This document shows positions 2,572 to 59,441 of a stretch of 64,000 nucleotides of DNA, one piece after another. A program made the translations under genes and the position numbers. Each line of letters begins with the position of its first letter. The stretch's first letter is position 1. The notes beneath the pieces were generated by a model. It ran no database searches. It saw nothing but the letters and a program-made list of their open reading frames with translations, and was not told the origin of the DNA. The stretch spans positions 1,568,001 to 1,632,000 of the forward strand of contig OZ241883.1 of the NCBI GenBank assembly GCA_965203445.1. The letters are read 5' to 3'. The stretch comes from Candidatus Oxydemutator sp. Its GTDB lineage: Bacteria; Pseudomonadota; Gammaproteobacteria; Poriferisulfidales; Oxydemutatoraceae.

Positions 2572-2594
2572 CGGCCACAACGGATATGCGGCGA

Positions 2595-24081: not shown

Positions 24082-24151
24082 CGCCGCGCCCGGGTCGGCG
24101 TCGCGGCCCATCGTCCGCCGGGGTCGGCGCGACGCAATCCGGCGTTTTCCG

Positions 24152-24466
24152 CTAGCGGATTTGTTCCTCGTGACTTTCCGAGCGGCCGAGATTGTCCGCC
24201 CACGTGAGCGTGACGTTCTCGCCCTTGTCGCCGCCGTCGAACTTGAAGGCGACGAACGGGTTCTTCGACACGCCGGTTCCCCAGTACGCCTCGAACACCT
24301 TTTCGTCCTTGTATTCGCATACGATCCGCTGGATGAAATGCGCCGGCACGAGTTCGCCGCTGTCGCGATCGCGTCGTCGCCCGGTCTCCATCGGGTGGGT
24401 GATCAGCGCCTTGACGGTCACGCCGTCGCCGTCCTTGCGCGCGCGCATCTTGATCGAGTCCGCCAT
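24152..24466 (-). CDS. soxZ: Thiosulfate oxidation carrier complex protein SoxZ
   Basis: VKALITHPMETGRR, PAHFI, VSKNPF, WADNLG. Confidence 0.93.
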   Translation of the reverse strand: MADSIKMRARKDGDGVTVKALITHPMETGRRRDRDSGELVPAHFIQRIVCEYKDEKVFEAYWGTGVSKNPFVAFKFDGGDKGENVTLTWADNLGRSESHEEQIR

Positions 24467-24479
24467 CGCCGCCCCCGCC

Positions 24480-24926
24480 TCAGCCGCAGCCGCCGGCGGT
24501 CACGCGCACCGTCTCGCGGCGGCTGTACCAGCGCCCGTCGGCCTTGACCAGCGCGACGACGTCGGAAGTCTCGCGCACTTTGAGATTGGTCGCGACGTAC
24601 GGGCGGCTTTGCCCGTGCATCACGAATTGCGACGTCAGCGGAACCGGGTTTTTCTCGACCAGCAGGCTGATGGATTCGACGCCATCCAGTCGCGCCTCAA
24701 CCTCGACGCGCACGGCGCCGCCGTCCTCGGCGACCCCGGGCACCTTCAGCCGGATCGCGTCGCTGTCGCGCGGCTGGCCGCCGGCGAGCAGGGCCAGCGT
24801 GCGGTCGAACTCGGTCGTCGTGAACAATTCTTTCGGCCAGTTCGCGAACAGCCGCGCCGGCGCCGCCGCCAGCAGCGACAACAGCGCGGCGCCCCCGCGC
24901 AAAAATTTTCTTCGATACTCGTTCAT
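24480..24926 (-). CDS. soxY: Thiosulfate oxidation carrier protein SoxY
   Basis: Tat signal MNEYRRKFL, AEDGGAVRV, EKNPVPL, C-terminal swinging arm VRVTAGGCG. Confidence 0.92.
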   Translation of the reverse strand: MNEYRRKFLRGGAALLSLLAAAPARLFANWPKELFTTTEFDRTLALLAGGQPRDSDAIRLKVPGVAEDGGAVRVEVEARLDGVESISLLVEKNPVPLTSQFVMHGQSRPYVATNLKVRETSDVVALVKADGRWYSRRETVRVTAGGCG

Positions 24927-25000
24927 GATGCGGCGTCCGGGCGACTTCACGTTAATGTGATGATACACTCGACACCCCAATCATACCACGGCCCCCCGAC

Positions 25001-25120
25001 GTGACGACACGAATCCTGGCATTCCTGGCCGCCGTGCTCGGCGCGGCGGCGCTCGCCTCGTGCGGGAAGACGGGCGATCTCTATCTGCCGGACGAGGAGC
25101 GGGTTTCGCGCCGGCAATGA
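25001..25120 (+). CDS. lptM: LptM (YifL/LppL) family small lipoprotein
   Basis: Not in the ORF track: [39 protein letters not shown]; lipobox LAS-C plus CGxxGxLYLP motif; stop overlaps the lysA ATG; canonical position upstream of lysA. Confidence 0.85.
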   Translation: MTTRILAFLAAVLGAAALASCGKTGDLYLPDEERVSRRQ

Positions 25121-27070: not shown

Positions 27071-30000
27071 ATGAAATCAGCAGCGAGATTTATCGCTACC
27101 GCGCTCCTCGCGTGCGTGGCGAACTCTGCCCACGCCATTCTTCAGGCTACCGTTTCCGTGGAAAATGAACGCGTCGAAGACACCGAGTTCTACGTCTTCG
27201 ACGTTTATCTCGAATCGAGCAGCAATGACGTGCTGTCGAACACAAACCCCGAGACGACGATACGTCTCGACACGCTGCAACTCCTTTTCAACTTCAGTAG
27301 CAATACCGCGGTAACCGTAACCGGCGCTGACATAACTTCCTACTTTGACTGGTCCGCGTACGGCAACGCGAGCGGCACCGTCACGGGCGTGCAATACATA
27401 CTGCGCGATTACCAGGCCGCGGGCGCCGCCACGACCGCGCTGAATCCGCGCATAGTGATAGACGCGTGGGAACTGGAAGACGCCACCGCCACCGACCTGT
27501 TCCAGCTTGCGCACGGCAGCGACGGCAAGACGCGGCTTTTCACCGTGCGCCTGCCGATTGCCGACCGCGACCGCCTGCCCGGCATGGAGATCGATATGCG
27601 ATCTACGATACTGCGCAGCAGCCAGAGCGAGATCCAGGAGCGGGCCATGTCGGTTGTCAGCGACGGCGCGGGCGGTTACCGCGCCGGTAGTTTGACGCAA
27701 AGGCCCCGTCCGATTCAGAGCCTGCGCCCGATGGCGACGATAACGGCGCGGACGCCGGTCGCCGCCGAAGGCACGAGCATCGCGTTCGACGTGCAGGCGC
27801 CCGGTGTCACCACCGGCACCTACGTCTTTTATCGGGTAAGCGGTTTCGGGGATGAGCCGGCGGACAACGATGATTTCCAGGGTCAGACTTCCCTGCCGTT
27901 CATGGGCACGTTGGCACTGCGCGAAGGCTCGACGCGCGGCGTGATCAACGTGTCCTTTAACGACGACGTGGACTCGGAACCGGAAGAGGGTTTTGTCGTG
28001 ACGCTGTTGACGTTGCAGACGTCGGCGTCGGAGAGCGCCGCCGTTCCTCTGGCCGTGCAATCCTCGGCTTCTGCGGCTATCGCGCCGAGTGATCCGCAGT
28101 TGGATCTGGCCCCGGTGCAGGCGACCTCCAGAGGACAGCCCGTCGTTTTCACCGTCAATTTGTCGCGTCCTTCCGACGGGCAGGTGCGATTTACGTGGGA
28201 GATTTCTGATGGCGGTAGCGGGTCTAATCCCGACCGGGTGGAACCGGGTGATTTTGACTATGACGAAGATAGGTCGCCGGACGCCGCTTTTCCCACGAGT
28301 CGTACGACGGTTCCGTTCGGCCAGAACAGTATCACTATAAGCGTCGCTACCTACGACGATCCCGATAATATAGAAGTGGCGGAGCAGTACTACGTGTCAA
28401 TTACCGCGTCGGCTGCCGCGACAATCGGGGTTTCTGACGGCGAGCAAGACCTTATTGACGTTTCCGTTCCGGTGGTCTCCATCAGAGGTCCTCTAGATGC
28501 GGTGTCCGAGGCGAGTAGTGCGTCGGCGGGTTTTGTTGTCGCACCCACCCCGCCGGGAGATGTAACCGTCTACTATAGAGTCGCCGGCGTGGGAGATACC
28601 ACCGGCACCGACGTTGAGAGTGCTGATTTGCGGCCTGCCGACAGAAACTGCTTTGGCGCGACGGCGAGGTGCCAGGCAGCGGTAAGAGACGGAAGTGATA
28701 CCACTTTGCTAGGGTTCGAGAATGACGACCTGGTGGAGCCGAGGGAAAGTTTCCGGATAATTCTTTTGTCCGGCGACGGCTATGCATTGGGCGCCGTCAC
28801 CAGTGCCGTGGGCAGCGTCGAGGCGAGCGACCGCGCGTTGACCATAGCGGCGTCGGATGCGACGTCCGCCGACGAGGGAGAAGCGCTGGAATTCACCATC
28901 GGGCTGACGGCGCAATCGGTCACGCTGACGGAGGCGATGCAGGTGTCGTACCGGGTTACCGGCACGGACGTCACTGCCGAAGACTTCGAAGGCGCGCTTG
29001 AGGGCATGGTTATGCTGGCCGCAGGCGAGAGAAGCACGACGTTTTCGGTAACCTTGCGCGCCGACGACTACGGGGAGGGGGTGGAAAGCTTCCGCGTAGA
29101 AGTCACGGAAGCGACCGGCGGTGGCGGCGACCACACCAACAATCTGCCGGTCGCGCCGGCGACGGCCGAGATCAACGCCGAAACCCGGTTGATAGCGAGG
29201 GCGATTGTGCACCATCGGAACCAGCACGCCTATTACCGGATGGGCGAATTCAGCATCGCCGAATCCAGCACCGACACCATTGGTATCGGTGTGGAACTGG
29301 TGGATACCAACGGCACCCCTATGGATCCGTCAGAGTCGGTTACGGTGCGCTACAGGCTGTCCGGATCGGCCACTGACGGGGAGGATTACACGAGGTCGGG
29401 TTCGGGGAACACGTTCACGGTCGGCACCGACAACAGCACTGCGACCGTCATAATCACGCTGATTGACAACAAGCTGAACGAGTCCGACGAAGACGTCGCG
29501 ATAGAGCTGCTCGCGATCACCGCGGGCACCGAGACGGCCGTATTGGCCGCCGCGGCCTCGTCCAGGAGCACCGCGTTCACGATCAACGACGACGACGAGT
29601 TGGAAGTCTCGATTGCGCGCAGCGACTCGGGCGATCTGGTCGAGGGTGCGCCGACGGCGGGCGGGCGCACGGCCGAGTTCGTCGTAACCGCGAACTCGAC
29701 CGCCACGGCGACGCTGACGATCCCGTTTACGGTGAGCGGAGGGGACGCCGGCGACTACACGCTGACGCCTTCGACGGCGGTGGAAATAGTGGAAGATGAG
29801 ACCACCGCTACGATCACGCTCGAGGTGGTGGACGACGCGCTCAACGAGGGCGCGGAGACGCTGACCGTCGGGCTGGTCGAGGTGCGGGGAGCGCTCGGCG
29901 CGGCCTCGGTGTCGGCGGACGAGGGTTCGGCGTCGGCGACGATAGCCGCGAACGACGAGATCACGGTGTCGTTGTCGGATCTTGTGTCCGGCGGTGCGGA

Positions 30001-51000: not shown

Positions 51001-54000
51001 GCTGACCTACGCGGTCGAGTCGCTGACTCCGGACGTGCCCGACGAACCCGCTACCGCGCGCTTCCGTCTTACGCTGACGGGCGGCGTTGCCGGCGCGCAG
51101 ATAACGGTGCCGTACGCGCTTTGGATATCCGCGAGCAACACCGTCAGCCAGACCGCAGATTTCAGCGATAACGACGACGGCAGTTTCGTCGTCGCCGCCG
51201 GCAGCACCCGCGCCGAGATAACCGTGGATATCCTGGATGACGGGGTGAACGAGGCGGAGGAGACGCTGACGCTGACAGTCAGCACCACGGCGATGGTCGC
51301 GGCCGGCGGCGGCATGGTCAGCCGCTCCGCCGAAGCGCAGGATCAGACGGCGCAGGCGGTCATCGCCGAGAACGGCGTTGCCGCTCGCTGGTTCCATATC
51401 ACGGCGGTGCCCGAGGGCACCACCAGCGTGGGCGAAGGCGCGCAGGCTACCTATGAGGTCAGTTACGACGGCACGACGCCGTCCGCGGGCGAGATGATTA
51501 CCGTGACCTGGGAGGTGGCCGGTGCCGGCATGCGCGCCGCGTCCGCCGCCGACTTTGCGCAGAGCGCGGGTAGCGTGACGTTTTCTGATGTCAACGCTCC
51601 GGGCACCACCCGCACCGTCACGCTTCAGATTGCGGGGGACACTCTGAACGAAGGCGACGAGGCGTTCACGATCACGATCACCGAGGACGATCTGCTTTCG
51701 CGGGTGTATTCGACCGGTTCGATGGTTATGACGACGATTACCGACGACGCCGACGACGCGCTGGTAGTCTCGATTGCGCGCAGTGATTCGGGCGATCTGG
51801 TCGAGGGCGCGACGATGACGAGCGTGCGCACGGCCGAGTTTGTCGTAACCGTGGGCGACGCGACCGCCGCCGCGGCGCTGACGATCCCGCTTACGGTAAG
51901 CGGCGACGTCGCCGGTGCGGAAGCGGCCGACTACGTGCTGACGCCTGCGACGGAGCTGGAGATACCGGCAGGGATGAGCACCGCCTCGATCACGCTCGAG
52001 GCGGTGGACGACGCGCTCAACGAGGGCGCGGAGACGCTGACCGTCGAGCTGGGCGGGGTGCAAGCGCCCGGCATGGCCTCGGTGTCGGCGGACGCGAGTT
52101 CGGCTGCGGTGACGATAGCCGCGAACGACGAGATCACGGTGTCGCTGTCGGAGCTTGTGTCCGGCGGCGCGGAAGGCACGACCGCGCGGTTCACGGTGTC
52201 GCTTGCGGGCGGTGAGGCGACCGAGGAGACCGTGGTGCCGTGGCAGATTGTGTCGGGCACCGCCTCCGCCGTCGCTGATTTTGGAACCAGTGCCGGCGAG
52301 TTGCGCTTTGCGGTGGGTGCTACGCAGCAGAGCATATATGTGCAGATTGTCGACGACGACGTGGCCGAGCCCGAGGAGTCGTACATGGTAAGAATCAGCC
52401 AGCCGACGGGCGGCGGCAGCGGTTCCGTGGCTTTGGGCACCCCGTCCATGGTAACGGCGGTGATCCCGGCGAGCGACCTGCCTGTGCTGTCGGTGTCGGC
52501 GCTTGTGGCGACGGTGGCCGAGACCGAAGCCGAGGCCTCTTTCAGGGTGCAATATGGCGACGGCACGACGATGCCTCCCCAGGCGGTGACCGTCCGTTAT
52601 CGCTTGTCGGGCACCGCCGAAGCCGTTGACGGCGGAGGCGACTACGAATATCCCGCTGGCTACAACCCCATCGGGGATGCCGCCGGCGGCGCCGTAACGA
52701 TAGGCACGGACGCGAGTTCTGCCAACGTCGTGCTGGCCCTGCGCGACGACGACCTCGATGAGCCTGATGAGACCATCGTCCTCGAGCTGCTTGAGGTTAC
52801 CGCGGGCGACGCCATGCTGCCGGCCGCTACCAGCGCGACCATCACGATAGAGGACGACGACAAGTTGTCGTTGTCGGTGGCGGCGTCGGAGGCGAGAACT
52901 CTCGAAGGCGATTCGGCCGAGATTGCGTTCACGGTGTCGCTGTTGAACGACGGTGTCGAGCCGACGCGCCCGCGCACGCAAGAAGTGCGCGTGGCCTACA
53001 CCTTAGGGGGCACCGCGGCCGGTGCCGGCACGGACTACACCGACCCGAGCGGATACGACGCGGGTGCGAGTTCGGGCGTGGTCGTGTTGAGCGCGGGCAC
53101 CAATAGCGCCGATGTTTCGATAACGGTGCAGGACGACGCGGTGGTCGAGCCCGACGAGACCGTGATCTTCGAGTTGACCGAGGTCATCGAGGGCGGTGAT
53201 TTGGCCGAATTGCGCGCCGCCGACACCACGCGCGCAAGCGTAACCATCATCGACAACGACGAGCCGGCGGGCACAGTAGTAAGCGCGGGCGTGTTTCTGG
53301 AGGGGGCGTATCGTGTCGCAAATGACGACATGGGCACGTTTTTGAATCAAGCGCTGCCACGTATGCAACCGTATAACGTGAGGCCCTGGAACCACGCGGC
53401 GACGACGACGGTGCCGCGTATAGAGGGCGCCACTAACGCCAACGGCATGCCGCCGAATGTGGTGGATTGGGTACTGTTGGAATTGCGGGTGGTGGACGAG
53501 GGTTCCGCGCCGAGTGCTGCGGATCCGGACAGCGTGCCCGCGGGCGGCGTGAAGGCGGGCTTGATTCTGTCCGACGGCAGCATAGTAGGCGTGAACGAGA
53601 ATGCGACCATGACGACGGATGTGTTGGCTCGGCAAGGGGTGCGCTTTGACGCCGAGATAGGGCCGAACCAGGACGTGTATCTGCTGTTGCAGCACCGCAA
53701 CCACCTGTCGGTGTTGTCAGGGCGTCCGTTGTCCGCGGATTGCGGCGGTTCGGGCGCAGACTATTGTATAGACTACCGAGAGGTGGGAGCCTCTGCGGAT
53801 TTGTATAATGGGAGCTGCCCGATGTTCCGTAACAATGACCGTTTGTTCATGGTAACCGGCGACGTGAATGCTGACGGCGTGATAGTAACGGCGGATGCTG
53901 AGTTTGCAAACGAGGCTCTTAGTCGTGCTACCGATTTGAATCTTCAGGCCACAAATAATCCGGCTTCGTTCAGGATTCTCACATTTAGAGGCACGGATTT

Positions 54001-54130
54001 TTATATGCCAAGCGCGAACGTCAGTCTTGACGAGTTGCTAGTCTCATCTGATTTCGATCGTGTGCTGGCGCAATTAAGGCGTCCATCCGGTCTCCTTAGC
54101 GGGCTGATTTGCCGATCAAGTGGGCAGTGA
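27071..54130 (+). CDS. Giant (~9,019 aa) secreted Calx-beta repeat protein with cohesin-like N-terminal domain and dockerin-like C-terminus
   Basis: Sec signal MKSAARFIATALLACVANSAHA; about 69 modules with DDxxxExxExFxVxL Calx-beta motifs (hand count); C-terminal VFLEGAY...DWVLLELR...HRNHL...GDVNADGVIVTAD; acidic, Ala/Thr/Val-rich; single uninterrupted 27-kb frame. Confidence 0.9.
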   Translation: MKSAARFIATALLACVANSAHAILQATVSVENERVEDTEFYVFDVYLESSSNDVLSNTNPETTIRLDTLQLLFNFSSNTAVTVTGADITSYFDWSAYGNASGTVTGVQYILRDYQAAGAATTALNPRIVIDAWELEDATATDLFQLAHGSDGKTRLFTVRLPIADRDRLPGMEIDMRSTILRSSQSEIQERAMSVVSDGAGGYRAGSLTQRPRPIQSLRPMATITARTPVAAEGTSIAFDVQAPGVTTGTYVFYRVSGFGDEPADNDDFQGQTSLPFMGTLALREGSTRGVINVSFNDDVDSEPEEGFVVTLLTLQTSASESAAVPLAVQSSASAAIAPSDPQLDLAPVQATSRGQPVVFTVNLSRPSDGQVRFTWEISDGGSGSNPDRVEPGDFDYDEDRSPDAAFPTSRTTVPFGQNSITISVATYDDPDNIEVAEQYYVSITASAAATIGVSDGEQDLIDVSVPVVSIRGPLDAVSEASSASAGFVVAPTPPGDVTVYYRVAGVGDTTGTDVESADLRPADRNCFGATARCQAAVRDGSDTTLLGFENDDLVEPRESFRIILLSGDGYALGAVTSAVGSVEASDRALTIAASDATSADEGEALEFTIGLTAQSVTLTEAMQVSYRVTGTDVTAEDFEGALEGMVMLAAGERSTTFSVTLRADDYGEGVESFRVEVTEATGGGGDHTNNLPVAPATAEINAETRLIARAIVHHRNQHAYYRMGEFSIAESSTDTIGIGVELVDTNGTPMDPSESVTVRYRLSGSATDGEDYTRSGSGNTFTVGTDNSTATVIITLIDNKLNESDEDVAIELLAITAGTETAVLAAAASSRSTAFTINDDDELEVSIARSDSGDLVEGAPTAGGRTAEFVVTANSTATATLTIPFTVSGGDAGDYTLTPSTAVEIVEDETTATITLEVVDDALNEGAETLTVGLVEVRGALGAASVSADEGSASATIAANDEITVSLSDLVSGGAEGTTARFAVSLAGGEATEETVVPWQVVSGTVGGASAADFAVGAGELRFAVGVTRQNIDLWIVDDESYMEPDESYMVRINQPTGGGSGSVTLGTPSTVTAVIPADLPVVSIESVVADVAEGDAVAMTLTATFVTMNMSVNYRVVSPTAGVGIDSGDLAAGAQGADCFGATATCETSVGASTNILTTVNDAAVEPSEGFRVVLLPGDGYELGEPSNAVGSVEASDRELTIAASSASADEGETLDFTVGLTAQSVGLTEAMQVSYRVTGTDVTAEDFEGALEGMVTLAASERSTMFTITLRADGMEETAAESFRVEITTATGGGGDHTNNLPAAPATAEINADNRLIARAFVYRQGMFYQVVDRGLAVNENEGQGTGVVQIGVELVNVSGTKTNPRESVTVSYRLSGSADGADYTRSDSGNTLTVGTNTSTRTATITLVDDNLNESAEDVVIELLAITAGNDAAILASEASSRSIGFTINDNDPATYAITADKDSVSEGDDPGYRVTLDRLSAGDITVSYTVSGIGADGYSAGTETTVLSGETSAAIALTIVDDDVNEATQTLVVTIGDMPRIGAGAGEALRAADSSRQSVEIARSDPLTYAVESLTPNVSQEPGTARFRLTLTGGVAGARTTVTYTLSISASNAGGETADFSDNDDGNFVFVAGSTRAEITVSILDDGVDEQAETLTLSTTATATVATGGGIVSRSAETQDQTAQAVIAANGAAVRWFHITALPEGTTSVAEGAQATYAISYDGTTPSAGETITVTWEVAGTGTRAASAADFAQRTGTVAFSDSDAPGAPRTVTLQIAEDTLNEGDETFTITITEDNGFSTVYSTRAMVETTINSDADDALVASIARSDSGDLVEGAPTTDTRTAQFAVSLNLTATAVLTIPLMVSGDVGDYTLTPSTALEIPEGAKTASITLEAADDAFNEGAETLSVELGGVQGALGAASVSADASSAAVTIAANDEITVSLSELVSGGAEGTTARFTVSLAGGEATEETVVPWQVVSGTVGGASAADFGAGAGGGELRFAVGVMQQSIYVRIADDDVLEPEESYMVRISQPTGGGSGSVALGTPSVVTAVIPADSPMVWIEDVTAEVAEGSAVAMALTATFATNVNVNYRVVSPTVGVSIDSADLAAGAQGADCFGATATCVTSVGASANILSTVNDAAVEPPEGFRVMLLPGDGYTLGEPSSAVGSVEASDRELTIAVSSASADEGETLDFTIGLTAQSVELTEAMQVSYRVTGTDGITAGDFEGAPLESMVTLAAGERSTTFSITLRDDGLEERAESFRVEITEATGGGGDHTNNLPAAPATAEINAETRLIARAIVHRAGTYYRMGEFDISESADGTVGIGVELVNIDGNPTTPQESVTVSYRLSGSAGGEDYTRSGTGNTLTVGTDKSTATVTITLIDDNLNESAENVAIELLAITEGTETAVLTSKVSSRSTAFTINDNDPATYAITADESSVSEGDDPGYRVTLDRPSAGDITVSYTVSGIAADGYSVGGAATETTVLSGETSAAIALTILDDNVNEATQTLVVTIGDMPRIGAGAGAVSRAADSSRQSVEIVWSDPLTYAVESLTPRVPDEPATARFRLTLTGGVAGARITVPYTLSITGTNAVNAGGETADFSDNDDGSFVVVAGSTHAEITVSILDDGVNEQEETLTLTVGATPIVAAGGGMVSRSAEAQDQTAQVVIPANGTVARWFRIAAVPEGTTSVTEGAQATYAVSYDGARPLAGVPITVTWEVAGAAGTGTRAASAADFAQRTGSVEFSDTDAPGVARNVMLRIAEDTLNEGDEAFTITITEDNQFSRVYSTASMVETTVTDDADDALAVSIARSDSGDLVEGAPVTSVRTAEFVVTVGNATATAALTIPLTVSGDVAGAEDADYTLTPATMLEIPEGMSTASITLEAVDDALNEGAETLTVELVEVRGALGAAMVSADASSASATIAANDEITVSLSELVSGGAEGTTARFTVSLAGGEATAETVVPWQVVSGTVGGASAADFAVGAGELRFAVGVTQQSIYVRIADDDVLEPEESYMVRINQPTGGGSGSVVLGTPSVVTAVIPADSPMVWIESVTANVAEGGAVAMALTATFATNVNVNYRVVSPTAGVSIDSADLAAGAQGADCFGTTATCVTSVGASANILSTLNDAAVEPSEGFRVVLLAGDGYTLSEPSSAVGSVEASDRELTIAALSASADEGETLDFAIGLTAESVELTEAMQVSYRVITSTSITAEDFEGALEGMVTLAAGERSTMFAITLRDDGVEETAAESFRVEITTATGGGGDHTNNLPVAPATAEINADGRLMATAYVQRGSTAYRVGEDNLIVNEHEGTGAGSIYIGVELVDDGGNPTDPRESVTVSYRLSGSADGADYTNSDSGNTITVATDKSTGTVTITLVDDNLNESAEDVVIELLAITAGNDAAVLASEASSRSIAFTINDNDPATYAITADEGSVSEGDDPGYRITLDRLSAGDITVPYTVSGIGAEGYSAGTETTVLSGETSASIALTIVDDNVNEATQTLVVTIGDMPRIGAGAGEALRAADSSRQSVEIARSDPLTYAVESLTPDVSGEPGTARFRLTLTGGVAGARITVPYTLSISGTNAVNAGGETADFTDNNDGSFVVAVGSSSAEISVSILDDEVEEQEETLTLTVSATSIVAAGGGAVSRSTEAQDQTAQAVIPANGAIVRWFHITAVPESTTSVGEGAQAIYAISYDGTTPSAGETITVTWEVAGAGMRAASAADFEQSMGSVEFSNTDAPGVARNVMLRIAEDTLNEGDEAFTITITEDNGFSRVYSTASMVETTVTDDADDALVVSIARSDSGDLVEGAPTTGVRTAEFVVTVGNATATAALTIPLMVSGDVAGAEDADYVLTPSVELEIPEGMSTASITFEAVDDALNEGAETLSVELGGVQGALGAASVSADASSAAVTIAANDEITVSLSELVSGGAEGTTAQFTVSLAGGEATEETVVPWQVVSGTVGGASAADFGAGAGGGELRFAVGVTQQNIYVRIVADDVIESDESYMVRISQPTGGGSGSVVLGIPSTVTAVIPADVPVVSIESVVADVAEGEVVAMALTATFATNVNVSYRVVSPTAGVSIDSADFAAGAQGADCFGATATCETPVGASMNILSTVNDGAVEPLEGFRVVLLPGDGYTLGEPSSAVGSIEASDRELTIAASDATSANEGETLEFTVGLTAQSVELTEAMRVSYRVTGTAVTADDFEGALEGMVTLAAGERSTMFSVTLRADNYGEGVERFRVEITEAMGGGGDHTNNLPAAPATAEINAEARLIARAFVHHRNAHAYYRMGEFSIAESSTDTIGIGVELVDADGTPTNPSESVTVRYRLSGSAGGDDYTRSGGSGNTLTVGTSNSTATVIITLVDDNLNESGEDVAIELLAITAGTETAILAAAASSRSTAFTITDNDPATYAITADEDSVSEGDDPGYRVTLDRASAGDITVSYTVSGIGAGGYSAGTETTVLSGETSTAIALTIVDDDVNEATQTLVVTIGDMPRIGAGAGAVSRAADSSRQSVEIVWSDPLTYAVESLTPDVPDEPATARFRLTLTGGVAGAQITVPYTLWISASNTVSQTADFRDNDNGNFVVAAGSSRAEITVDILDDGVSEAAETLTLAVNTTATVAAGGGMVSRSAEAQDQTAQAVIAENGVAVRWFHITAVPEGTTSVGEGAQATYAVSYDGTTPSAGETITVTWEVAGTGMRAASAADFAQSAGSVEFSDADAPGAARNVTLQIAGDTLNEGDEAFTITITEDDLLSRVYSTGSMVETTVTDDADDALVISIARSDSGDLVEGAPTTSVRTAEFVVTVGNATATAALTIPLTVSGDVVGAEAADYVLTPATMLEIPAGMSAASITLEAVDDALNEGAETLSVGLVEVQGALGAASVSADASSAAVTIAANDEITVSLSELVSGGAEGTTARFTVSLAGGEATEETVVSWQVVSGTVGGASAADFGAGAGGGELRFAVGVAQQSIYVRIAADDVLEPEESYMVRISQPTGGGSGSVVLGIPSVVTAVIPADSPVVWIESVAAEVAEGGAVAMALTATFATNVNVNYRVVSSTAGASIDSDDLAAGAQGADCFGATATCVTSVGASANILSTANDAAVEPSEGFRVVLLAGDGYTLGEPSSAVGSIEASDRELTIAALSASADEGETLDFAIGLTAESVELTEAMQVSYRVITSTSITAEDFEGALEGMVTLAAGERSTMFAITLRDDGVEETAAESFRVEITTATGGGGDHTNNLPAAPATAEINADGRLMATAYVQRGSTAYRVGEDNLIVDEHEGTGAGSIYIGVELVDDGGNPTDPRESVTVSYRLSGSADGADYTNSDSGNTITVATDKSTGTVTITLVDDNLNESAEDVVIELLAITAGSDAAILASEASSRSIAFTINDNDPATYAITVDEGSVSEGDDPGYRITLDRLSAGDITVPYTVSGIGAEGYSAGTETTVLSGETSAAIALTIVDDNVNEATQTLVVTVGDMPRIGAGAGEALRAADSSRQSVEIARSDPLTYAVESLTPDVSGEPGTARFRLTLTGGVAGAQITVPYTLSISGTNAVNAGGQTADFTDNNDGSFVVAVGSSSAEISVSILDDEVEEQEETLTLTVSATSIVAAGGGVVSRSAEAQDQTAQAVIPANGAIVRWFHITVVPEGTTSVGEGAQAIYAISYDGTTPSAGETITVTWEVAGAGMRAASAADFAQSMGSMGSVEFSDADAPGVARNVMLRIAEDTLNEGDEAFTITITEDNGFSRVYSTASMVETTVTDDAADALVVSIARSDSGDLVEGAPTTGVRTAEFVVTVGNATATAALTIPFMVSGDVAGAEDADYVLTPSVELEIPAGMSTASITLEAVDDALNEGAETLSVELGEVQGALGAASVSADASSAAVTIAANDEITVSLSELVSGGAEGTTARFTVSLAGGEATEETVVPWQVVSGTVGGASAADFGAGAGGGELRFAVGVTQQNIYVRIVADDVIESDESYMVRISQPTGGGSGSVALGIPSTVTAVIPADVPVVSIESVVADVAEGEVVAMALTATFATNVNVSYRVVSPTAGASIDSADLAAGAQGADCFGATATCETPVGASTNILSTVNDDAVEPLEGFRVVLLPGDGYTLGEPSSAVGSIEASDRELTIAASDATSANEGETLEFTVGLTAQSVELTEAMRVSYRVTGTDGITAGDFEGALEGMVTLAAGERSTTFSVALRVDDYGEGVESFRVEITEAMGGGGDHTNNLPAAPVTAEINAEARLIARAFVSRVSINESDSPNTVGIGVQLVDADGTPTDPSESVTVRYRLFGSAGGDDYTRSGSGNTFTVGTSNSTATVIITLVDDNLNESGEAVAIELLAITAGTETAVLAAAASSRSTAFTITDNDPATYAITADEDSVSEGDDPGYRVTLDRPSAGDITVSYTVSGIGAGGYSAGTETTVLSGETSAAIALTIVDDDVNEATQTLVVTVGDMPRIGAGAGEALRAADSSRQSVEIVWSDPLTYAVESLTPDVPGEPATARFRLTLTGGVAGAQITVPYRLWISASNTSMQTADFRDNDNGNFIVAAGSSRAEITVDILDDEVNEAAETLTLTVNTTATVAVGGGMVSGSTEAQDRTAQAVIAENGVVARWFHITAVPEGTTSVGEGAQAIYAVSYDGTTPSAGETITVTWEVAGAGMRAASAADFAQSMGSVEFSDADAPGAARNVTLQIAEDTLNEGDEAFTITITEDDLLSRVYSTGSMVMTTITDDADDALVVSIARSDSGDLVEGAPVTSVRTAEFVVTVGNATATAALTIPFMVSGDVAGAEAADYVLTPATMLEIPAGMSTASITLEAVNDDAVEPSEGFRVVLLPGDGYTLGEPSSAVGSIEASDRELTIAASDASSANEGETLEFTVGLTAQSVELTEAMQVSYRVTGTDGITADDFEGALEGMVTLAAGERSTTFSVALRADDYGEGVERFRVEVTEATGGGGDHTNNLPAAPVTAEINAETRLIARAFVHHRNAHAYYRMGEFSIAESSNDLIGIGVELVDADGTPMDPSESVTVRYRLFGSAGGDDYTRSGSGNTLTVGTSNSTATVIITLVDDNLNESAEAVAIELLAITAGTETAVLAAAASSRSTAFTITDNDPATYAITADEERVSEGDDPGYRITLDRPSAGDITVSYTVSGIGAEGYSAGTETTVLSGETTAAIALTIVDDDVNEATQTLVVTVGDMPRIGAGAGEALRAADSSRQSVEIVWSDPLTYAVESLTPDVPDEPATARFRLTLTGGVAGAQITVPYRLWISASNTSMQTADFRDNDNGSFIVAAGSSRAEITVDILDDQVDEAAETLTLAINSTATVAAGGGMVSRSAEAQDQTAQAVIAENGVVARWFHITAVPEGTTSVAEGAQATYEVSYDGTTPSAGETITVTWEVAGIGMRAASAADFVKSTGTVAFSNVDAPGTTRTVTLQIAEDTLNEGDEAFTITITEDNQFSRVYSTGSMVMTTITDDADDALVVSIVRSDSGDLVEGAPVTSVRTAEFVVTVGNATATAALTIPLTVSGDVAGAEDADYVLTPATELEIPAGMSTASITLEAVNDDAVEPSEEFRVVLLPGDGYELGEPSSAVGSIEASDRELTIAASDASSANEGEALEFTVGLTAQSVELTEAMQVSYRVTGTDGITADDFEGALEGMVTLAAGERSTTFSVALRVDDYGEGVESFRVEVTEATGGGGGHTNNLPAAPATAEINAETGLIARAVVYQAGAYYRMGEFSISEAGGGTVYIGVELVDSDGNHVHPSESVAVRYRLSGSAGGDDYTRSDSGNTLTVGTSASTATVTITLVDDNLNESAEDIAIELLAVTAGTETAVLAAAASSRSTAFTITDNDPAAYAVTADEDSVSEGDDPGYRVTLDRPSAGDITVSYTVSGIGAEGYSAGTETTVLSGETSAAIALTIVDDNVNEATQTLVVTIGDMPRIGAGAGAVSRAADSSRQSVEIVWSDPLTYAVESLTPDVPDEPATARFRLTLTGGVAGAQITVPYALWISASNTVSQTADFSDNDDGSFVVAAGSTRAEITVDILDDGVNEAEETLTLTVSTTAMVAAGGGMVSRSAEAQDQTAQAVIAENGVAARWFHITAVPEGTTSVGEGAQATYEVSYDGTTPSAGEMITVTWEVAGAGMRAASAADFAQSAGSVTFSDVNAPGTTRTVTLQIAGDTLNEGDEAFTITITEDDLLSRVYSTGSMVMTTITDDADDALVVSIARSDSGDLVEGATMTSVRTAEFVVTVGDATAAAALTIPLTVSGDVAGAEAADYVLTPATELEIPAGMSTASITLEAVDDALNEGAETLTVELGGVQAPGMASVSADASSAAVTIAANDEITVSLSELVSGGAEGTTARFTVSLAGGEATEETVVPWQIVSGTASAVADFGTSAGELRFAVGATQQSIYVQIVDDDVAEPEESYMVRISQPTGGGSGSVALGTPSMVTAVIPASDLPVLSVSALVATVAETEAEASFRVQYGDGTTMPPQAVTVRYRLSGTAEAVDGGGDYEYPAGYNPIGDAAGGAVTIGTDASSANVVLALRDDDLDEPDETIVLELLEVTAGDAMLPAATSATITIEDDDKLSLSVAASEARTLEGDSAEIAFTVSLLNDGVEPTRPRTQEVRVAYTLGGTAAGAGTDYTDPSGYDAGASSGVVVLSAGTNSADVSITVQDDAVVEPDETVIFELTEVIEGGDLAELRAADTTRASVTIIDNDEPAGTVVSAGVFLEGAYRVANDDMGTFLNQALPRMQPYNVRPWNHAATTTVPRIEGATNANGMPPNVVDWVLLELRVVDEGSAPSAADPDSVPAGGVKAGLILSDGSIVGVNENATMTTDVLARQGVRFDAEIGPNQDVYLLLQHRNHLSVLSGRPLSADCGGSGADYCIDYREVGASADLYNGSCPMFRNNDRLFMVTGDVNADGVIVTADAEFANEALSRATDLNLQATNNPASFRILTFRGTDFYMPSANVSLDELLVSSDFDRVLAQLRRPSGLLSGLICRSSGQ
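28823..52468 (+). repeat. Nine-unit intragenic super-repeat (8 Calx-beta modules per full unit)
   Basis: The ASDR marker recurs at 28823, 30659, 33599, 36566, 39536, 42488, 45467, 47663 and 49889; spacings 1836, 2940, 2967, 2970, 2952, 2979, 2196 and 2226 bp, all multiples of 3. Confidence 0.92.
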
Positions 54131-54186
54131 AGTTCTTGCAGGCTTCGTATTACATGAAAAATAAAAAAACTGGTTGGAGAGAAACC

Positions 54187-57100
54187 ATGAGTATGTTCAA
54201 AAAAGATATATCTTACATTTTGTTCGTGGCAGTATTGCTCGGGGCCAGTTTGCCCTCGGCATCACTTGCCCAGGCTTTGCGTACTTCTGACAGTCCGCCA
54301 TGCCCGAGCACGGGCACAGATTGCTTGATTTTTACTACATACATGGACAATGAGAGAGTTGTACCCAATTCTGGTAGTCCCAGTGGATATGACTATGCCT
54401 TTGATCTCTCCTACTCGGTTAACAGTAACATAAGGCTTGGAGCTCTGGTTGTGGCTAATAGGAATACTGTATATCAATCAGGTGATAGCCTGCCACTTCT
54501 GATGCATAATATAGAGACGATCATCGGATTTGATAGAGATGTATTTGTAGTCACTGAAAGCGCGATAACTATAGCTTATGCCGAGGGTGCGAGCATCTTT
54601 GATCCAGACTCTGAGGATTCTTCGTTTACTAGGGAGGTTGCTCCTGGAGTATCCATAACAGCCCCCAGCTACCAACATCCCTCCCTGGACGGTCGTCCTG
54701 GTGTTACGGCTCGCATACTCCTCAGTGCTGACCAGCGGCTGTCAGTATCAATACAGGGAGACGCTCGAACCCCTATCGGTGCAACTCCACTATATGACTT
54801 TGGCAATGGCAGCAGAAGGGTACTTTTTAACATTCGCATACCTATTAGGAATGCCGCGAATTTCAACGCTGCGGCGACTAGCGCTGACGCAGATATCTTT
54901 ATGAGTAGAGGGGGTGCTGGGATAGGCGAAAGCAGTATTCTAAACTATGCCAATGCTGTGAGTGATAGGGCTCTAGCACGGTTCGGGGCCACAACAGTAC
55001 GCATACGCCGCCCCAACCCCATCCAGAGTCTGGCGGCGCCGGTGAATTTGGCGGTAAGCTCCCAGAGAGTGGAGGAGGGCCAAGATCTGACGATCACCCT
55101 GAACCGGGGTGCCGCAGTAGCCACTGATACGGATATCACTTTAAGATTGTCGCTTGGAGGGGAGTCCGGCGAGGCGGGACGGGAAGATCTTAACCTCACT
55201 GGTTGGGCGACAAGCGGCACGGTGGCCACAAGAACGGTAACAATGGCCAAGGACGAAAGTAGTGTGTCAATCGATATTCCCGTCATAGACGACATGTTGA
55301 GCGAAGGCGATGAGACCTTTCGCGTTGAGTTTCTCCCGAGCTCCACCGTGGGTCAGGGGGATCCGTCCGCGTTGACCGTGACGATACCGGCCAACGACCC
55401 GATAAGATACTCGATCAGTCCGCCTCCGGGAGATGTGATGGAAGGGAGCGACGCTGAATTTGAGGTCACTTTGGGAGCGGAAACCACCCGGGCATTGATG
55501 CTTGAATATACAGTAGCCGTAGCCGGGGACGGCACTCCCCAGGGCACAACGCCAGACTATACCGATCCAAATAGCGGCAGCATTCTCATTGCTGCCGGGA
55601 GCACCAGGACCACGATCACTATCACGATAAATGGCGACGCGCTGGCGGAAGGTCAGGAGACTTTGACGGTCACGCTGACGGGAGATGCCAACGGCATCGG
55701 CACCGTCGTGCAGGCGAGAGCTACTGCTACTGCGACCATCCCAGAAAACGAGGCCAACGTGCGCGAGTTTTTCGTGGTGGATGGCGACTTCACTGCCCTG
55801 GCCGAAGATGCGGCGGCTGCTCGTAGCTATAATGTCAGTTTCCGGCCGGTCGGCGGCATTTCAGCAAATGCCGATCTGCCCAGCACGACGACCGTCCGCT
55901 GGAGCTTGGTTGGTTCGAGCGCTTCGGGCGCCAACCCGATCGAAGCGGCTGATTTTGCCGAGACTTCCGGCACGCTGACGTTCGCCGCCGGCACCAGCAG
56001 CGTGAAGAACTTCTCGGTTACGGTTACCAATGACAACCTGAACGAAGGCGCAGAAAGCTATCGGGTGAGTCTGCGAGTAGTGAGCGGCGACACCGCCGGC
56101 TCCGCCGGTGTTGATTCTCCGGTCGGCACCGTTGCGGACGACGCTGCCGATACGATAACGGTCGCGTTCACGGCTGGCCCCGTCACCACAATTAACGAAG
56201 GCGAGCACTCCACGCAGACGCTCGTCCGTTCGGGTGGCACGCCCACCGCCGAGAACGTCGTCGTGCCGTTGCTCATCACTCCCGTTGCCATGCAGGATGA
56301 GGTCAGGATAACGAATCCCGTCGGCCTGCGCATCCTGCGTGTGCCGGACGATGTTACCGTTACCGGAGGCGAAACCGGTCTGTACGGCTTTGCGGTGTTC
56401 ACCGCAACCGGCGGCCAATACGCAACGAACGCCACCTTCCAGATTATGGCTTTCAACGACAACCTCCTTGAGGATGCGGAGATGGTGAGTGTGACTATCG
56501 GTGATCCGACGGCCGCTGCGTATAGCAGCGTTCCTGGTGTCGGCAGCGCCGGCACGGTTGCCAGAGCCACGCCTGCTCCGACGTACACCGGAACCATTGC
56601 GGCAAACGACCCGATAACGGTCGCGGTGAATCCGGTGCGGGGGCAGGAACGCGGTGTCGGCGAAGGCAGCAACCTGGGTTACACGATAACGTTTTCCAAC
56701 AACCGGCCGACGGCGGATATAACCGTTGGTATGACGATTGAGGGCATTATCGTTGGTAGCACAACTGGTACGGAAAATGCCGATTTTGACGCGGCGGCGT
56801 CGGGATGGAACACCTCCGCGGCGACGGTTACTACCGACGCCACGATCACCGTGGCCGACGTAGTATTGGGCCGGCCCATCGCACTCCCGACCCTGCGCGT
56901 GGTGACGGGTGATACGGACGACAGAGAGGAGACTTTCCAACTGACCGTGGTTCCGAGCGGGGGTGCTCCAGCGCAAACGGCGGCCATCGCTCGCTTCTCG
57001 CCGCCACAGGTCACCACCACCTCGACGATCTTGCGCATAGACACCGAAGCACCGGGTTTGAACGGCGTGGGTTACGCCACCGACGACCCGACCCGGCGCG

Positions 57101-59385
57101 CGTGGTTGAGATCGGGAGATCCGGAGCTTGCCATCCTGTTGCCATCTGAAGCAGCTGCACCCGCGGGTTCCGGCGCACAGACTGGTGCCATGTTGGGCGG
57201 CTTCAGCGTGATGGTGATGAGCCGCCCCACCGATACGAGAACGGTTAGCGTCCAGGCCATGTATAGCTCGCCCAACGTGATAGTTTTGACACTGCCGCCG
57301 GGTGCTGCGCTTACCGCTGATGACATGGGTGTGTTTGCAAGATACGAATATCCGGGAAGCGGTCTGGGCATATTTGACCGCTCGCTGGAGGCGGGCTTGC
57401 GCCCGGCGGATGACCAGAATCGCAACCAGCAACGCGGCCCGTTGATGATAAGTTTGGCAGCTTTCTCGGAAACCGCCGACACCGACGGCGACGGCATCCC
57501 GGATGCCACCGAGGCCAAGTTGAACGGCGATCCGCTGGACTCGGAGTTGCCGGCCGGCGTGCCGCAAGTTTCAGTGGATGAGGACATGCTCTACTTCGCA
57601 TATTCGGGAATACGTCGACACGGGATTGACACCGCCACGTTGATCAGTCACCTTGGCCTCACGACGACGGGAACGGCGTCGTTCCCGGCAGTGTCGGCAG
57701 AGGCCTATTACCTGGATAGAGGCAACTGCACTGGTGGACAATTCCCTGCAAATTATGACGCGCCGATGGGCGGCTGCGAGCGGGTGAACTTTTGGAACAT
57801 GAAAGCCGGCGAGAATCACAAGATAGGCTGGGTGGTGATGGGCGATGATGTGCCGGAGGGCCATCCCGCGCGAGGCTACTGGTTCACCGCGAACACGCCG
57901 AGCAGGTTGCCGGAGCAGACGGTCTATCGCGTGCCGGAGCTGAACATGCTGTCGCAGCACTTGTTCTTTGCGAGTGGCGCGACCGATAGCGATGCTGTCT
58001 CAATTAAATTTGAGCGCGATGGCCGTGAAACGGATCAATTGACATTTGAGTCGTCCGAGGGGAACACCGAGGAGTTGACTGGGGCACGGTTTTCCCGCGA
58101 AGTTAATAAATCTGATCTCGGTGGTGCTTCGCGCACGTATTCGATTGCGGATTTGGTTGATGCGACACTATATGAGCCGAGCACTGCTGGTCATAGGCCG
58201 GGGGAAAATGATTATTCCTTGGGGCTGGTAACGCAGACGCAAGTTGTCGTGGTACCTGACTCGTACTTGTGGCCAAGGTTCGGGGCGCTGAAGTTGACGA
58301 GGATGGGGAGCACCAGCACCTCCGTGGTCAACTTTGTGGTTCGAGGTGATAGCTACAAGCTGACGGTGGAGATGGAGAACATGGACGATGCGGTGAGGAC
58401 GATACCGCACACGGGTTTCACAAATGTGGAGGGCCACCGCGGGTTTGATCGTGATGATATCAGCACTGATGTGGGTACGTTGACTGTAGATTTCACCGTA
58501 CCCACGGACGCCCCCGAATTATTGTCATTGATGTTGACTGCTTATGCTCCTCACGGTGGCGCGACTAGGAGCGCGGTGTATAGCTGGAGGGTGATTAATA
58601 CTAATGACCGTAATGTGGTGAGGTTGGGCATGCCAGACGATGATGATGACGGTGACGGAATTCCGAATACCCATGATAGATATGAAGATATGGCATTGCC
58701 TGTATTGGTGAAAGATACTGCGGGTGAGGATGGTAGTCACCACATGCGCTTGGCGGTGCCGTTACAGCAGCAGTTGCGCGTCGGCGGACATACGCTCCGC
58801 CGCCTAGAAGAACGGAGCACACAGACGGTGACATACGCACTCCACTCTGCGTCGGCGAACAAAGGTGAAAAAGTGAGGTATAACTTCGAGATCCATGGCG
58901 TGGATTACGACGTGGGTGAGGATGGCAACACCACCGGCGGCATGGCCACTGTGTTTGTTAAACTGCCAGAGTCGTCTTTTAGCCGTGGCTTACAGCTGGC
59001 GAAGTTCGCTGACGAGGATATCAGCGCTCATAGGCACCTTTTTTCTGTCTACAAGGCCGAGGGTCATGGCGAGTATGGTTTTGAGTCTTCGCGTCTTGGC
59101 GAAGACTGTCCCGTTCCCAACGGTAATAATTATAAAGCCACGGAGAGGGGAGAGCACGACTGTCTCATGGTGCGGATAAGGGATGGCGGTCGCCACGATG
59201 AGGATTGCTGGAGCGACGGAAGCTACGATATGGAGTGCAGGCCAAACGGCATCATACGCGACCCGCTGGGCTTTGGCCGAGATGCTCCGGGTGGCGGCAG
59301 TGGCGGCAGCGTCGGCCTGTTGGGTATTGCCCTGCTGATGTTGGCCTTGGCGGCAACCCTGCTGCGCCGTCGTCGCGTGCACTGA
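54187..59385 (+). CDS. Large (~1,732 aa) surface protein: cohesin-like N-domain, 5 Calx-beta, SwmB-like domain, TSP3-like motifs, choice-of-anchor-U-like domain, GlyGly-CTERM
   Basis: GGAGA RBS at 54176; signal MSMFKKDISYILFVAVLLGASLPSASLA; DDMLSEGDETF-type motifs; DTDGDGIPD and DDDGDGIPN; IRDGGRHDED...NGIIRDP; ends GGGSGGSVGLLGIALLMLALAATLLRRRRVH. Confidence 0.88.
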   Translation: MSMFKKDISYILFVAVLLGASLPSASLAQALRTSDSPPCPSTGTDCLIFTTYMDNERVVPNSGSPSGYDYAFDLSYSVNSNIRLGALVVANRNTVYQSGDSLPLLMHNIETIIGFDRDVFVVTESAITIAYAEGASIFDPDSEDSSFTREVAPGVSITAPSYQHPSLDGRPGVTARILLSADQRLSVSIQGDARTPIGATPLYDFGNGSRRVLFNIRIPIRNAANFNAAATSADADIFMSRGGAGIGESSILNYANAVSDRALARFGATTVRIRRPNPIQSLAAPVNLAVSSQRVEEGQDLTITLNRGAAVATDTDITLRLSLGGESGEAGREDLNLTGWATSGTVATRTVTMAKDESSVSIDIPVIDDMLSEGDETFRVEFLPSSTVGQGDPSALTVTIPANDPIRYSISPPPGDVMEGSDAEFEVTLGAETTRALMLEYTVAVAGDGTPQGTTPDYTDPNSGSILIAAGSTRTTITITINGDALAEGQETLTVTLTGDANGIGTVVQARATATATIPENEANVREFFVVDGDFTALAEDAAAARSYNVSFRPVGGISANADLPSTTTVRWSLVGSSASGANPIEAADFAETSGTLTFAAGTSSVKNFSVTVTNDNLNEGAESYRVSLRVVSGDTAGSAGVDSPVGTVADDAADTITVAFTAGPVTTINEGEHSTQTLVRSGGTPTAENVVVPLLITPVAMQDEVRITNPVGLRILRVPDDVTVTGGETGLYGFAVFTATGGQYATNATFQIMAFNDNLLEDAEMVSVTIGDPTAAAYSSVPGVGSAGTVARATPAPTYTGTIAANDPITVAVNPVRGQERGVGEGSNLGYTITFSNNRPTADITVGMTIEGIIVGSTTGTENADFDAAASGWNTSAATVTTDATITVADVVLGRPIALPTLRVVTGDTDDREETFQLTVVPSGGAPAQTAAIARFSPPQVTTTSTILRIDTEAPGLNGVGYATDDPTRRAWLRSGDPELAILLPSEAAAPAGSGAQTGAMLGGFSVMVMSRPTDTRTVSVQAMYSSPNVIVLTLPPGAALTADDMGVFARYEYPGSGLGIFDRSLEAGLRPADDQNRNQQRGPLMISLAAFSETADTDGDGIPDATEAKLNGDPLDSELPAGVPQVSVDEDMLYFAYSGIRRHGIDTATLISHLGLTTTGTASFPAVSAEAYYLDRGNCTGGQFPANYDAPMGGCERVNFWNMKAGENHKIGWVVMGDDVPEGHPARGYWFTANTPSRLPEQTVYRVPELNMLSQHLFFASGATDSDAVSIKFERDGRETDQLTFESSEGNTEELTGARFSREVNKSDLGGASRTYSIADLVDATLYEPSTAGHRPGENDYSLGLVTQTQVVVVPDSYLWPRFGALKLTRMGSTSTSVVNFVVRGDSYKLTVEMENMDDAVRTIPHTGFTNVEGHRGFDRDDISTDVGTLTVDFTVPTDAPELLSLMLTAYAPHGGATRSAVYSWRVINTNDRNVVRLGMPDDDDDGDGIPNTHDRYEDMALPVLVKDTAGEDGSHHMRLAVPLQQQLRVGGHTLRRLEERSTQTVTYALHSASANKGEKVRYNFEIHGVDYDVGEDGNTTGGMATVFVKLPESSFSRGLQLAKFADEDISAHRHLFSVYKAEGHGEYGFESSRLGEDCPVPNGNNYKATERGEHDCLMVRIRDGGRHDEDCWSDGSYDMECRPNGIIRDPLGFGRDAPGGGSGGSVGLLGIALLMLALAATLLRRRRVH

Positions 59386-59396
59386 TAACCCCGTTC

Positions 59397-59441
59397 CAGC
59401 CGGCCCGCACCCCCACCTCCGCGGGCCGGCTGCTTTCCTTT
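59397..59441 (+). terminator. Rho-independent terminator after the surface-protein locus
   Basis: 12-bp stem CAGCCGGCCCGC / GCGGGCCGGCTG, 12-nt loop, followed by CTTTCCTTT. Confidence 0.7.

Follow-up and report, generated by a model that had tools for sequence, protein, structure and literature searches.

In a stretch of 64,000 nucleotides (nt) from the genome of Candidatus Oxydemutator sp. (the window, G000:C1:1568001-1632000, where G000 is the host genome, a single contig of 2.38 Mb with 63.6% G+C and 100% completeness), two co-oriented genes on the + strand, A (27071..54130) and B (54187..59385), encode secreted proteins of 9,019 and 1,732 amino acids (aa). We favour, with a confidence that stops just short of even, the reading that A and B represent a conserved two-gene cassette in an enlarged local form and make up a two-part surface system, in which a module at the C-terminus of A probably docks on an anchored partner. 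Four things were established directly: the domain anatomy of the two proteins, the homology of the A module to modules that score as dockerins, the conserved order of the genes, and the fact that the genome encodes rhombosortase and GspD. An earlier reading of the same DNA (the first-pass annotation) had proposed that a cohesin-like tip of B, itself anchored through a GlyGly-CTERM, captures a dockerin of A; as a whole, that proposal is partly supported.

The cassette is seen in relatives of the host. We compared 40 related genomes: of the 18 from the host family, 16 contain the module and 17 contain rhombosortase, and the 22 from three further families contain neither (0/22 each). We fetched 16 loci from 13 related genomes and found 17 module-gene cassettes, which all belong to one family and are not phylogenetically independent. 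In each of the 17, a small secreted module gene, or a run of 2-3 such genes, is followed on the same strand, with a gap within ~100 nt, by a large gene whose product has 619 to >4,603 aa. Eleven of the downstream products end in a Gly run, a transmembrane (TM) helix, and a basic tail, three end in a TM helix and a basic tail with no Gly run, and the remaining three extend beyond the fetched DNA. Rhombosortase lies directly after the downstream gene in 7 of the 17 cassettes, and gspE is located ~1 kb upstream of the cassette in two genomes (661 and 664 bits, cut-off 630). Over their first ~350 aa, downstream giants from different genera belong to a single family (hhalign 95% and 93%); Pfam gave nothing significant on the five giants scanned. 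In the sister species G001, three module genes are followed by a giant and then by rhombosortase; the giant ends 95 nt before the rhombosortase gene and its C-terminal domain is homologous to that of B (E 1.7e-48). Moreover, a 5,904-aa B-type giant of G001 is situated directly upstream of purE, the same position that B occupies in the host. Because relatives share the order of a module gene and then an anchored giant, and because the G001 giant has a B-like C-terminal domain, the A-then-B pair mirrors the conserved cassette, with the module fused to a giant and the pair situated away from rhombosortase.

A second lineage provides the sole independent replicate of this arrangement. In a class-wide sample, the module is rare, being present in 4 of 300 genomes, two of which belong to another family (G322 and G140; loci L127-L130). 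The operon in these loci encodes, in this order, a small module protein, module-tailed proteins of 5,248, 1,141, and 977 aa, and an 814-aa IPTL-CTERM protein (IPTL-CTERM matches of 28.8 and 31.6 bits, cut-off 20.5). The 814-aa protein has an N-domain (48% identity) and repeats in common with module-tailed proteins of the operon. This is the same relation as that of B to A, which is weaker in the A/B pair. The IPTL-CTERM protein at the end of the second-lineage operon has TSP3-type repeats, and the NCBIfam matches, to MtsC/MtsD of myxobacterial cell-cell cohesion, are well below cut-off.

The last ~290 aa of A consist of a ~175-aa beta-sandwich (A aa 8730-8904, 53258..53782, + strand) with an invariant HRNH motif, followed by a dockerin-type loop pair in a divergent tail (53828..54127, + strand). 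Loop 1, DVNADGVIVTAD (53861-53896; DxNxDGxxxxxD), has the canonical D/N-x-D/N-x-D-G-x5-D form, and loop 2, NVSLDELLVSSD (54017-54052), is degenerate; the positions at which the first-pass annotation had placed the two motifs, 53861 and 54017, are exact. Pfam and NCBIfam found nothing but Calx-beta in the last 120-700 aa of A. By phmmer, the last 300 aa are similar to the ends of 22 further host open reading frames (ORFs), four of them near-identical (E <=1e-159) and most of the others at E 1e-43 to 1e-24 through loop 1, and the tail of one paralogue hits solved dockerins with E 1e-6 to 5e-5. The loops of A are in register with the paralogue loops DVDRNGVIDERD and DADLDFDGEVLSAD (MAFFT). On the basis of this register and of the homology to dockerin-scoring paralogue ends, we assign the C-terminus of A as a divergent member of a dockerin-type module, with loop 1 canonical and loop 2 degenerate. 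In many paralogues, a Cys pair stands immediately ahead of the stop codon (C-x-x-C-x-P or the like; for example, G000:C1:156895, 226749, 838794, 1286868, and 1786643); the tails of the A subfamily end in ...ICRSSGQ, with a single Cys.

The sandwich was modelled by AlphaFold2 (AF2) with blocks of predicted local distance difference test (pLDDT) scores of 83-96. No solved relative was found by Foldseek at E <=0.001 or by VIA-align with Z >=5 among 48,161 chains; X-module-dockerin (X-Doc) complexes and secretin pilotins were considered as relatives and set aside, with Z of only 3.6-4.5 at noise level. In a 45-sequence alignment, H-R-x-H is invariant and 23 more positions are >=90% conserved. Such conservation exceeds the need of a spacer module and suggests a metal or ligand site, given the invariant H-R-x-H and the many near-invariant residues. 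QPY, PW, and VDWxLxELR are among the near-invariant stretches. The module is widespread, with 2,488 clusters at 50% identity at E <=1e-3 and 304 at E <=1e-10; among 40 module matches scanned, no Pfam family covers the sandwich (0/40) and Dockerin_1 is found at E <=0.001 in three.

The last 31 aa of B (59290..59382, + strand; terminus GGGSGGSVGLLGIALLMLALAATLLRRRRVH) consist of GGGSGGS, the hydrophobic helix VGLLGIALLMLALAATLL, and RRRR, a tripartite tail of GlyGly-CTERM type by architecture. This pattern of a Gly-rich motif, a TM helix, and a basic cluster is kept in six homologues, whose tails read GGGSFG-hydrophobic-RRR. The 22-position hidden Markov model (HMM) of GlyGly-CTERM, TIGR03501, gave no match on the last 40, 60, or 70 aa of B up to E 10 and none at B in a genome scan. 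No match was obtained on any of the 11 tails tested from relatives either, although five of these were seen beside rhombosortase, so its miss on B is weak evidence. The genome contains a single rhombosortase (TIGR03902, 130.9 bits, cut-off 84), located on the strand of gspD and 15.6 kb downstream of it (GspD 470 bits, cut-off 351), as the search proposed in the first-pass annotation was meant to reveal, and exosortase was not found in the host genome. The GlyGly-CTERM assigned to B is thus backed by its tripartite tail and by rhombosortase and GspD in the genome, although not by TIGR03501. The gspM/N-like ORFs near the relatives' cassette and near the host rhombosortase have no NCBIfam match, and we therefore restrict the statement on type II secretion (T2SS) to gspD and gspE. 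The last ~760 aa of B are common to three other host giants of 7,672, 2,941, and 11,262 aa, and we refer to these four anchor-tailed giants as class II. The choice-of-anchor U model (NF041766) scores 22.6 bits in B and 21.3-27.9 bits in the three paralogues (cut-off 32; E 1e-4 to 3e-6); the match stands directly before the tail in B and two paralogues, and a ~230-aa insert separates the two in the 11,262-aa paralogue. The C-terminal domain of B has 9-18 matches in each of three sister species.

The remainder of A and B is adhesin-like. A contains an N-domain (A_N, 27137..27820, + strand; 228 aa, all-beta by prediction) and a Calx-beta array (27821..53227, + strand) built on a ~985-aa super-repeat, with six full-length repeat intervals and two of ~740 aa. 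Pfam Calx-beta (PF03160) recognizes 35 individually significant stretches in A (15 + 20; 442 and 482 bits). The closing motif is matched 62 times, mostly at a spacing of 112-138 aa, with ~10 modules skipped and ~3 matches extra; once the skipped modules are counted, this is consistent with the ~69 Calx-beta modules originally estimated. A has no C-terminal TM segment, in agreement with the proposal that it lacks a membrane anchor. B contains an N-domain (B_N, 54277..55120, + strand) weakly similar to A_N, two Calx-beta stretches over the Pfam cut-off (65 bits), and a C-terminal domain of ~730 aa (57103..59289, + strand) with two TSP3-like Asp-rich motifs and the sub-threshold choice-of-anchor U match.

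From this anatomy, we infer how binding, receptor, export route, and Ca2+ dependence may combine in A/B. B would be exported by Sec, held in the inner membrane through its Gly-run/TM/Arg tail, cut by the single rhombosortase, carried out by type II secretion, and kept on the cell surface. The models for this fate are VesB of Vibrio cholerae (PMC6219818) and the dedicated GlyGly-CTERM/rhombosortase systems (Haft & Varghese 2011). A would be exported by Sec as a Ca2+-stiffened rod of ~69 Calx-beta modules with no anchor of its own, and its C-terminal module would act as a non-covalent docking and retention device. The likeliest receptor would be a B-type anchored protein, through a site that is not a canonical cohesin. 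Extended beyond A/B, this could describe a Gram-negative surface-display system not described before, in which module proteins dock through a non-cohesin receptor on sorting-signal-anchored giants, with GlyGly-CTERM/rhombosortase or IPTL-CTERM used according to lineage, export by T2SS, and the 24 + 4 giants of the host forming a layered adhesive coat; we regard this wider picture as possible and, taken in full, rather doubtful.

The host genome holds an unusual number of such proteins. A module profile gives 26 matches, of which 24 are at the C-termini of proteins of 1,272-17,496 aa, one is N-terminal, and one is a fragment. The search proposed in the first-pass annotation, for further host proteins ending in the A module, thus gives 24 in all including A. 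The only non-terminal copy is in a 687-aa ORF (G000:C1:893360-895420, + strand), with the module at aa 54-286 and then ~400 aa. PF00404 (Dockerin_1) has 10 matches in the genome, nine of them over cut-off and all 10 at module ends; A is not among them. Dockerin_1 scores highest in the genome (33.5 bits) on a 1,384-aa PPC (pre-peptidase C-terminal) protein reaching G000:C1:1566444. The 24 module-tailed and 4 anchor-tailed giants, up to 17,496 aa long, occupy 21.3% of the 2.38-Mb DNA. The family relatives have 0-5 module matches, on small ORFs of 265-650 aa, and the host genome has undergone a lineage-specific explosion of giant surface proteins.

Outside the family, a genome-collection scan queried with six paralogues, with records near the host genome left out, returned 589 relatives of the module. 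The best 78 loci are, with one exception, from Bacteroidota, Ignavibacteriota, Chlorobiota, Calditrichota, or Rhodothermales, and 112 of the 121 module ORFs in these loci end in the module. Matches to a cohesin HMM occur in module ORFs or their neighbours at 5 of the 78 best loci, so that, in those phyla, the module does occur in a cohesin-dockerin setting. Cohesin modules as such are not new to the bacterial class of the host, since they score over the Pfam cut-off in 14 of 300 sampled genomes of that class.

Several findings weigh against docking of A on B or against a dockerin-type tail in A. Loop 2 of A keeps positions 1, 3, 5, and 12 and lacks the Gly. PF00404 does not match the last 120, 300, or 700 aa of A up to E 10, and the best solved match of the tail, dockerin 4dh2_B, is local over loop 1 and non-significant (whole-sequence E 0.23). 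AF2 places helices at residues 221-240 of the model, starting from within loop 1, and 273-282, just past loop 2, with a pLDDT of only 26-55 over the tail. The dockerin C-terminus first proposed for A is thus supported by homology to Dockerin_1-scoring paralogue modules, although its own tail misses the HMM and folds poorly. As for the partner, an anchored gene directly follows the module gene in 1 of 24 cases in the host genome, that of A only; the next gene is another module gene in 9 of the 24, and an unrelated ORF or none in the rest. The other three class II genes have no module match nearby. G001 has 18 matches to the B C-terminal domain versus one module-gene cassette. At the loci of Bacteroidota-type bacteria, in which the module is most common, a TM helix with a basic tail is found in 0 of 60 downstream ORFs, and the module therefore has no general need of such a partner. 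The N-terminal family of the downstream giants in the cassettes is unrelated to A_N and B_N (jackhmmer none; hhalign <=5%) and to cohesin. The Pfam cohesin PF00963 has no match in the host genome at E 1, and an HMM built from 11 same-class cohesin sequences finds none at E 1 among all genome ORFs and the ORFs of the relatives' cassettes. What is conserved of the A/B pair is the order of a module gene and then an anchored giant in relatives; neither the pairing across the host genome (1/24) nor the N-domains, which none of the 40 related genomes contain, follow it.

The N-domains themselves are narrowly distributed. The likeness of A_N and B_N, claimed earlier as homology, is marginal: BLASTP gives E 0.004 over 132 aa and MAFFT aligns them end to end at 28% identity, although phmmer does not recover the likeness at E<0.01. 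Only two outside homologues of A_N were found (66% and 81% identity), and none of B_N elsewhere, apart from contig pieces of ~93% identity in a single other sequencing study. Their absence from the 40 relatives means that the N-domains cannot be the general receptor of the module. Profile searches of the N-domains against PDB sequences found nothing. The AF2 model of A_N, made from a 4-row alignment, has a mean pLDDT of 41.3, and its Foldseek list, which contains nothing at E <=0.001, is consequently not interpretable. Two sets of ESM Atlas look-alikes were set aside as noise-level: cohesin clusters for A_N (0.82 and 0.80, below 0.9) and autotransporter-type barrels for B_N (0.82, with low recognition). 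A complex prediction of the last 300 aa of A with B_N and A_N together gave a score of 0.00, which counts neither for nor against binding.

How the module relates to the anchored proteins can be explained in other ways, of which the most serious, less probable in our view than docking on the partner, is that the module and the sorting tail are independent alternative retention devices. The module would then bind another envelope component or an external ligand, such as an outer-membrane glycan or host matrix, and adjacency would reflect duplication and co-regulation of paralogous adhesins. This agrees with the 'choice-of-anchor' pattern of A/B and of the module/IPTL pair, whose members have N-terminal or passenger parts in common and diverge chiefly at the C-terminus, with the 23 of 24 host module genes that have no anchored neighbour, and with the terminal module of varied Bacteroidota-type ORFs beside unanchored neighbours; in addition, the invariant H, R, and H of the sandwich and its 23 near-invariant residues suggest that it has its own ligand site. 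It leaves unexplained, however, why all 17 family cassettes precede a large gene, counted as an anchor-tailed giant with the tail seen in 14, seven of them beside rhombosortase, and why the module and rhombosortase share a common family-level spread.

A role in export or maturation is unlikely. The module would here be a T2SS-targeting or pilot-like helper for giants, acting in trans as a small protein or in cis when fused, and the cassette does adjoin gspE and rhombosortase in relatives; moreover, giants with Sec-type N-termini (by eye) need an outer-membrane route, and a T2SS pilotin is among the best structural matches of the sandwich. That match (Z 4.5) is at noise level, with no Z >=5 among the 48,161 chains, phyla with other secretion systems carry the module in abundance, and a Ca2+-loop pair of dockerin type typically serves docking rather than chaperoning. 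We consider even less probable the model of the first-pass annotation, in which A_N and B_N are cohesin-like, the B tip captures the A dockerin, and A chains head to tail. The end-to-end alignment of A_N and B_N, the ESM Atlas cohesin clusters for A_N, which are below the level at which they would count, and cohesins at ranks 12 and 31 of the Foldseek list from the poor A_N model speak for it. Against these stand the absence of a Pfam cohesin (PF00963) match on A_N and B_N at E 10 and an hhalign probability of 0.4-0.5% for the N-domains versus the 11 same-class cohesins, no better than reversed controls; with the class-specific HMM also silent, cohesin-like N-domains find no signal. The N-domains are also lacking in the relatives that carry the cassette, and in the predicted geometry a B tip holding the A C-terminus would extend A outward from the far end of B. 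Nothing supports head-to-tail polymerisation of A, and a cellulosome-type assembly is not apparent, as the genome has 24 dockerin-type proteins but no cohesin-bearing protein was found in it.

The closest known system to the docking of module proteins on an anchored giant is the cellulosome, in which an X-dockerin docks on a scaffoldin anchored by a sorting signal. In cellulosomes, an X-module with a type II or type III dockerin docks on a cell-bound scaffoldin, as with the X-Doc of Clostridium thermocellum CipA and the sortase-anchored ScaE of Ruminococcus flavefaciens. Similarly, the host module combines a C-terminal beta-sandwich with a dockerin-type tail of two Ca2+-type loops, a C-terminal sorting signal would fix the partner to the cell, and many proteins of the genome share one putative docking module. 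In contrast, no cohesin is detectable in the host genome, the host is Gram-negative with a rhombosortase/T2SS route instead of sortase or SLH, and the cargo consists of giant Calx-beta and beta-helix adhesin-like proteins instead of enzymes. Structural matches of the host module to X-Doc are at noise level (Z 3.6-3.7, root mean square deviation 7.4-7.5 Å); the PDB entries 2b59, 3kcp, 5g5d, and 2zf9 are among the structure-search matches. LapA-type RTX adhesins, which leave the cell by type I secretion on a C-terminal RTX signal and are retained by an N-terminal plug, resemble A in the tandem-duplicated array of Ca2+-binding beta-sandwiches and in an N-terminal or tip domain of separate origin. 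In A, by contrast, the signal is of Sec type and the C-terminus of dockerin type.

Dedicated GlyGly-CTERM/rhombosortase systems, in which the target is adjacent to rhombosortase, are already known (Haft & Varghese 2011, PMC3237569). As in those described there, the host-family system has a tripartite tail, a target that adjoins rhombosortase in relatives, and T2SS. It differs in that TIGR03501 misses all host-family tails, in that the targets are giants of 1,369-4,540 aa, and in a third component, the conserved upstream module gene, which the passages of PMC3237569 on such pairs do not mention. The 'Dockerin-type giant proteins' of Omnitrophota are very large secreted proteins proposed to serve surface attachment (bioRxiv 10.1101/2023.11.21.568195). 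They share with the host proteins the occurrence of dockerin/EF-hand and TSP3 Ca2+ motifs on very large secreted chains; in Omnitrophota, repeated dockerin-like units and a C-terminal TM segment are in the same chain, whereas the host has a single terminal module and the anchor is on the neighbour protein. Of the 21 papers containing rhombosortase or GlyGly-CTERM that a full-text search returned, none also contains dockerin.

To our knowledge, the retention of very large Sec-exported proteins on the Gram-negative surface is poorly understood, and the rhombosortase cargo studied so far has, as far as we know, been limited to enzymes and nucleases. The conserved third gene beside an anchored target and rhombosortase, which encodes a small secreted protein bearing a dockerin-type Ca2+ module, is a concrete candidate for a further, new component, and the gene order kept by relatives next to rhombosortase points to an undescribed way of attaching giants to the Gram-negative surface. 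Should the module dock on the anchored giant, the cellulosome principle would be carried over to proteobacterial adhesion by dockerins that bind without a cohesin, and thousands of orphan 'dockerin' annotations outside cellulolytic bacteria would gain a possible role. With a fifth of its DNA spent on 28 such proteins, the host lends itself naturally to the study of what giant adhesins cost and how they evolve.

Turning to the locus itself, the open + strand frames lie at 26999-54130 (A) and 54109-59385 (B). The start of each gene was chosen as the first Met preceding a Sec-like signal, as in the first-pass annotation, and the coding regions are then 27071-54127 and 54187-59382. These frames and starts confirm that A and B are co-oriented and 56 nt apart. 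The Sec-like N-termini, MKSAARFIATALLACVANSAHA in A and MSMF...ASLAQA in B, were judged by eye. The 56-nt spacer (54131..54186, + strand) is A+T-rich and carries GGAG at 54176-54179, 7 nt 5' of the B ATG; the consensus terminator scan reported no terminator-like site in it. Downstream of B, a 12-bp GC hairpin (59397..59432, + strand) followed by CTTTCCTTTC is the likely terminator of the A/B pair. Its folding energy is -35.1 kcal/mol (z -4.6, equalled by 0 of 200 shuffles) and its tail is pyrimidine-rich. The terminator placed after B is accordingly backed by a strong hairpin, although the consensus scan missed it and listed no terminator 3' of B. The genes flanking A/B are housekeeping genes, lysA, panD, purE, and purK.

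The 5' part of B (54001-56000) has 53.8% G+C, compared with ~65% in A and 63.6% in the genome, and whole B has 59-61%; the low G+C at the B N-domain region suggests a different history of that region. Short-read contigs of runs that contain this genome are broken up at 53300-54100, where the depth rises from ~23 to 75-186, as expected from five near-identical module copies. One short-read contig spans 54035-56500, covering the end of A, the spacer, and B, with no differences. A run of another study, labelled sponge metagenome, has pieces 90-97% alike over the module, spacer, and B_N. At the other end of the window, the 5' part of the module-tailed 1,384-aa PPC-domain protein occupies 1..2580 on the - strand, with its dockerin-type end just beyond the window. 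Between argH and lysA (22454-25004) are three co-oriented ORFs of 229, 313, and 270 aa, in none of which a Pfam family was found; the first two (229 and 313 aa) sit in a stretch of 58% G+C.

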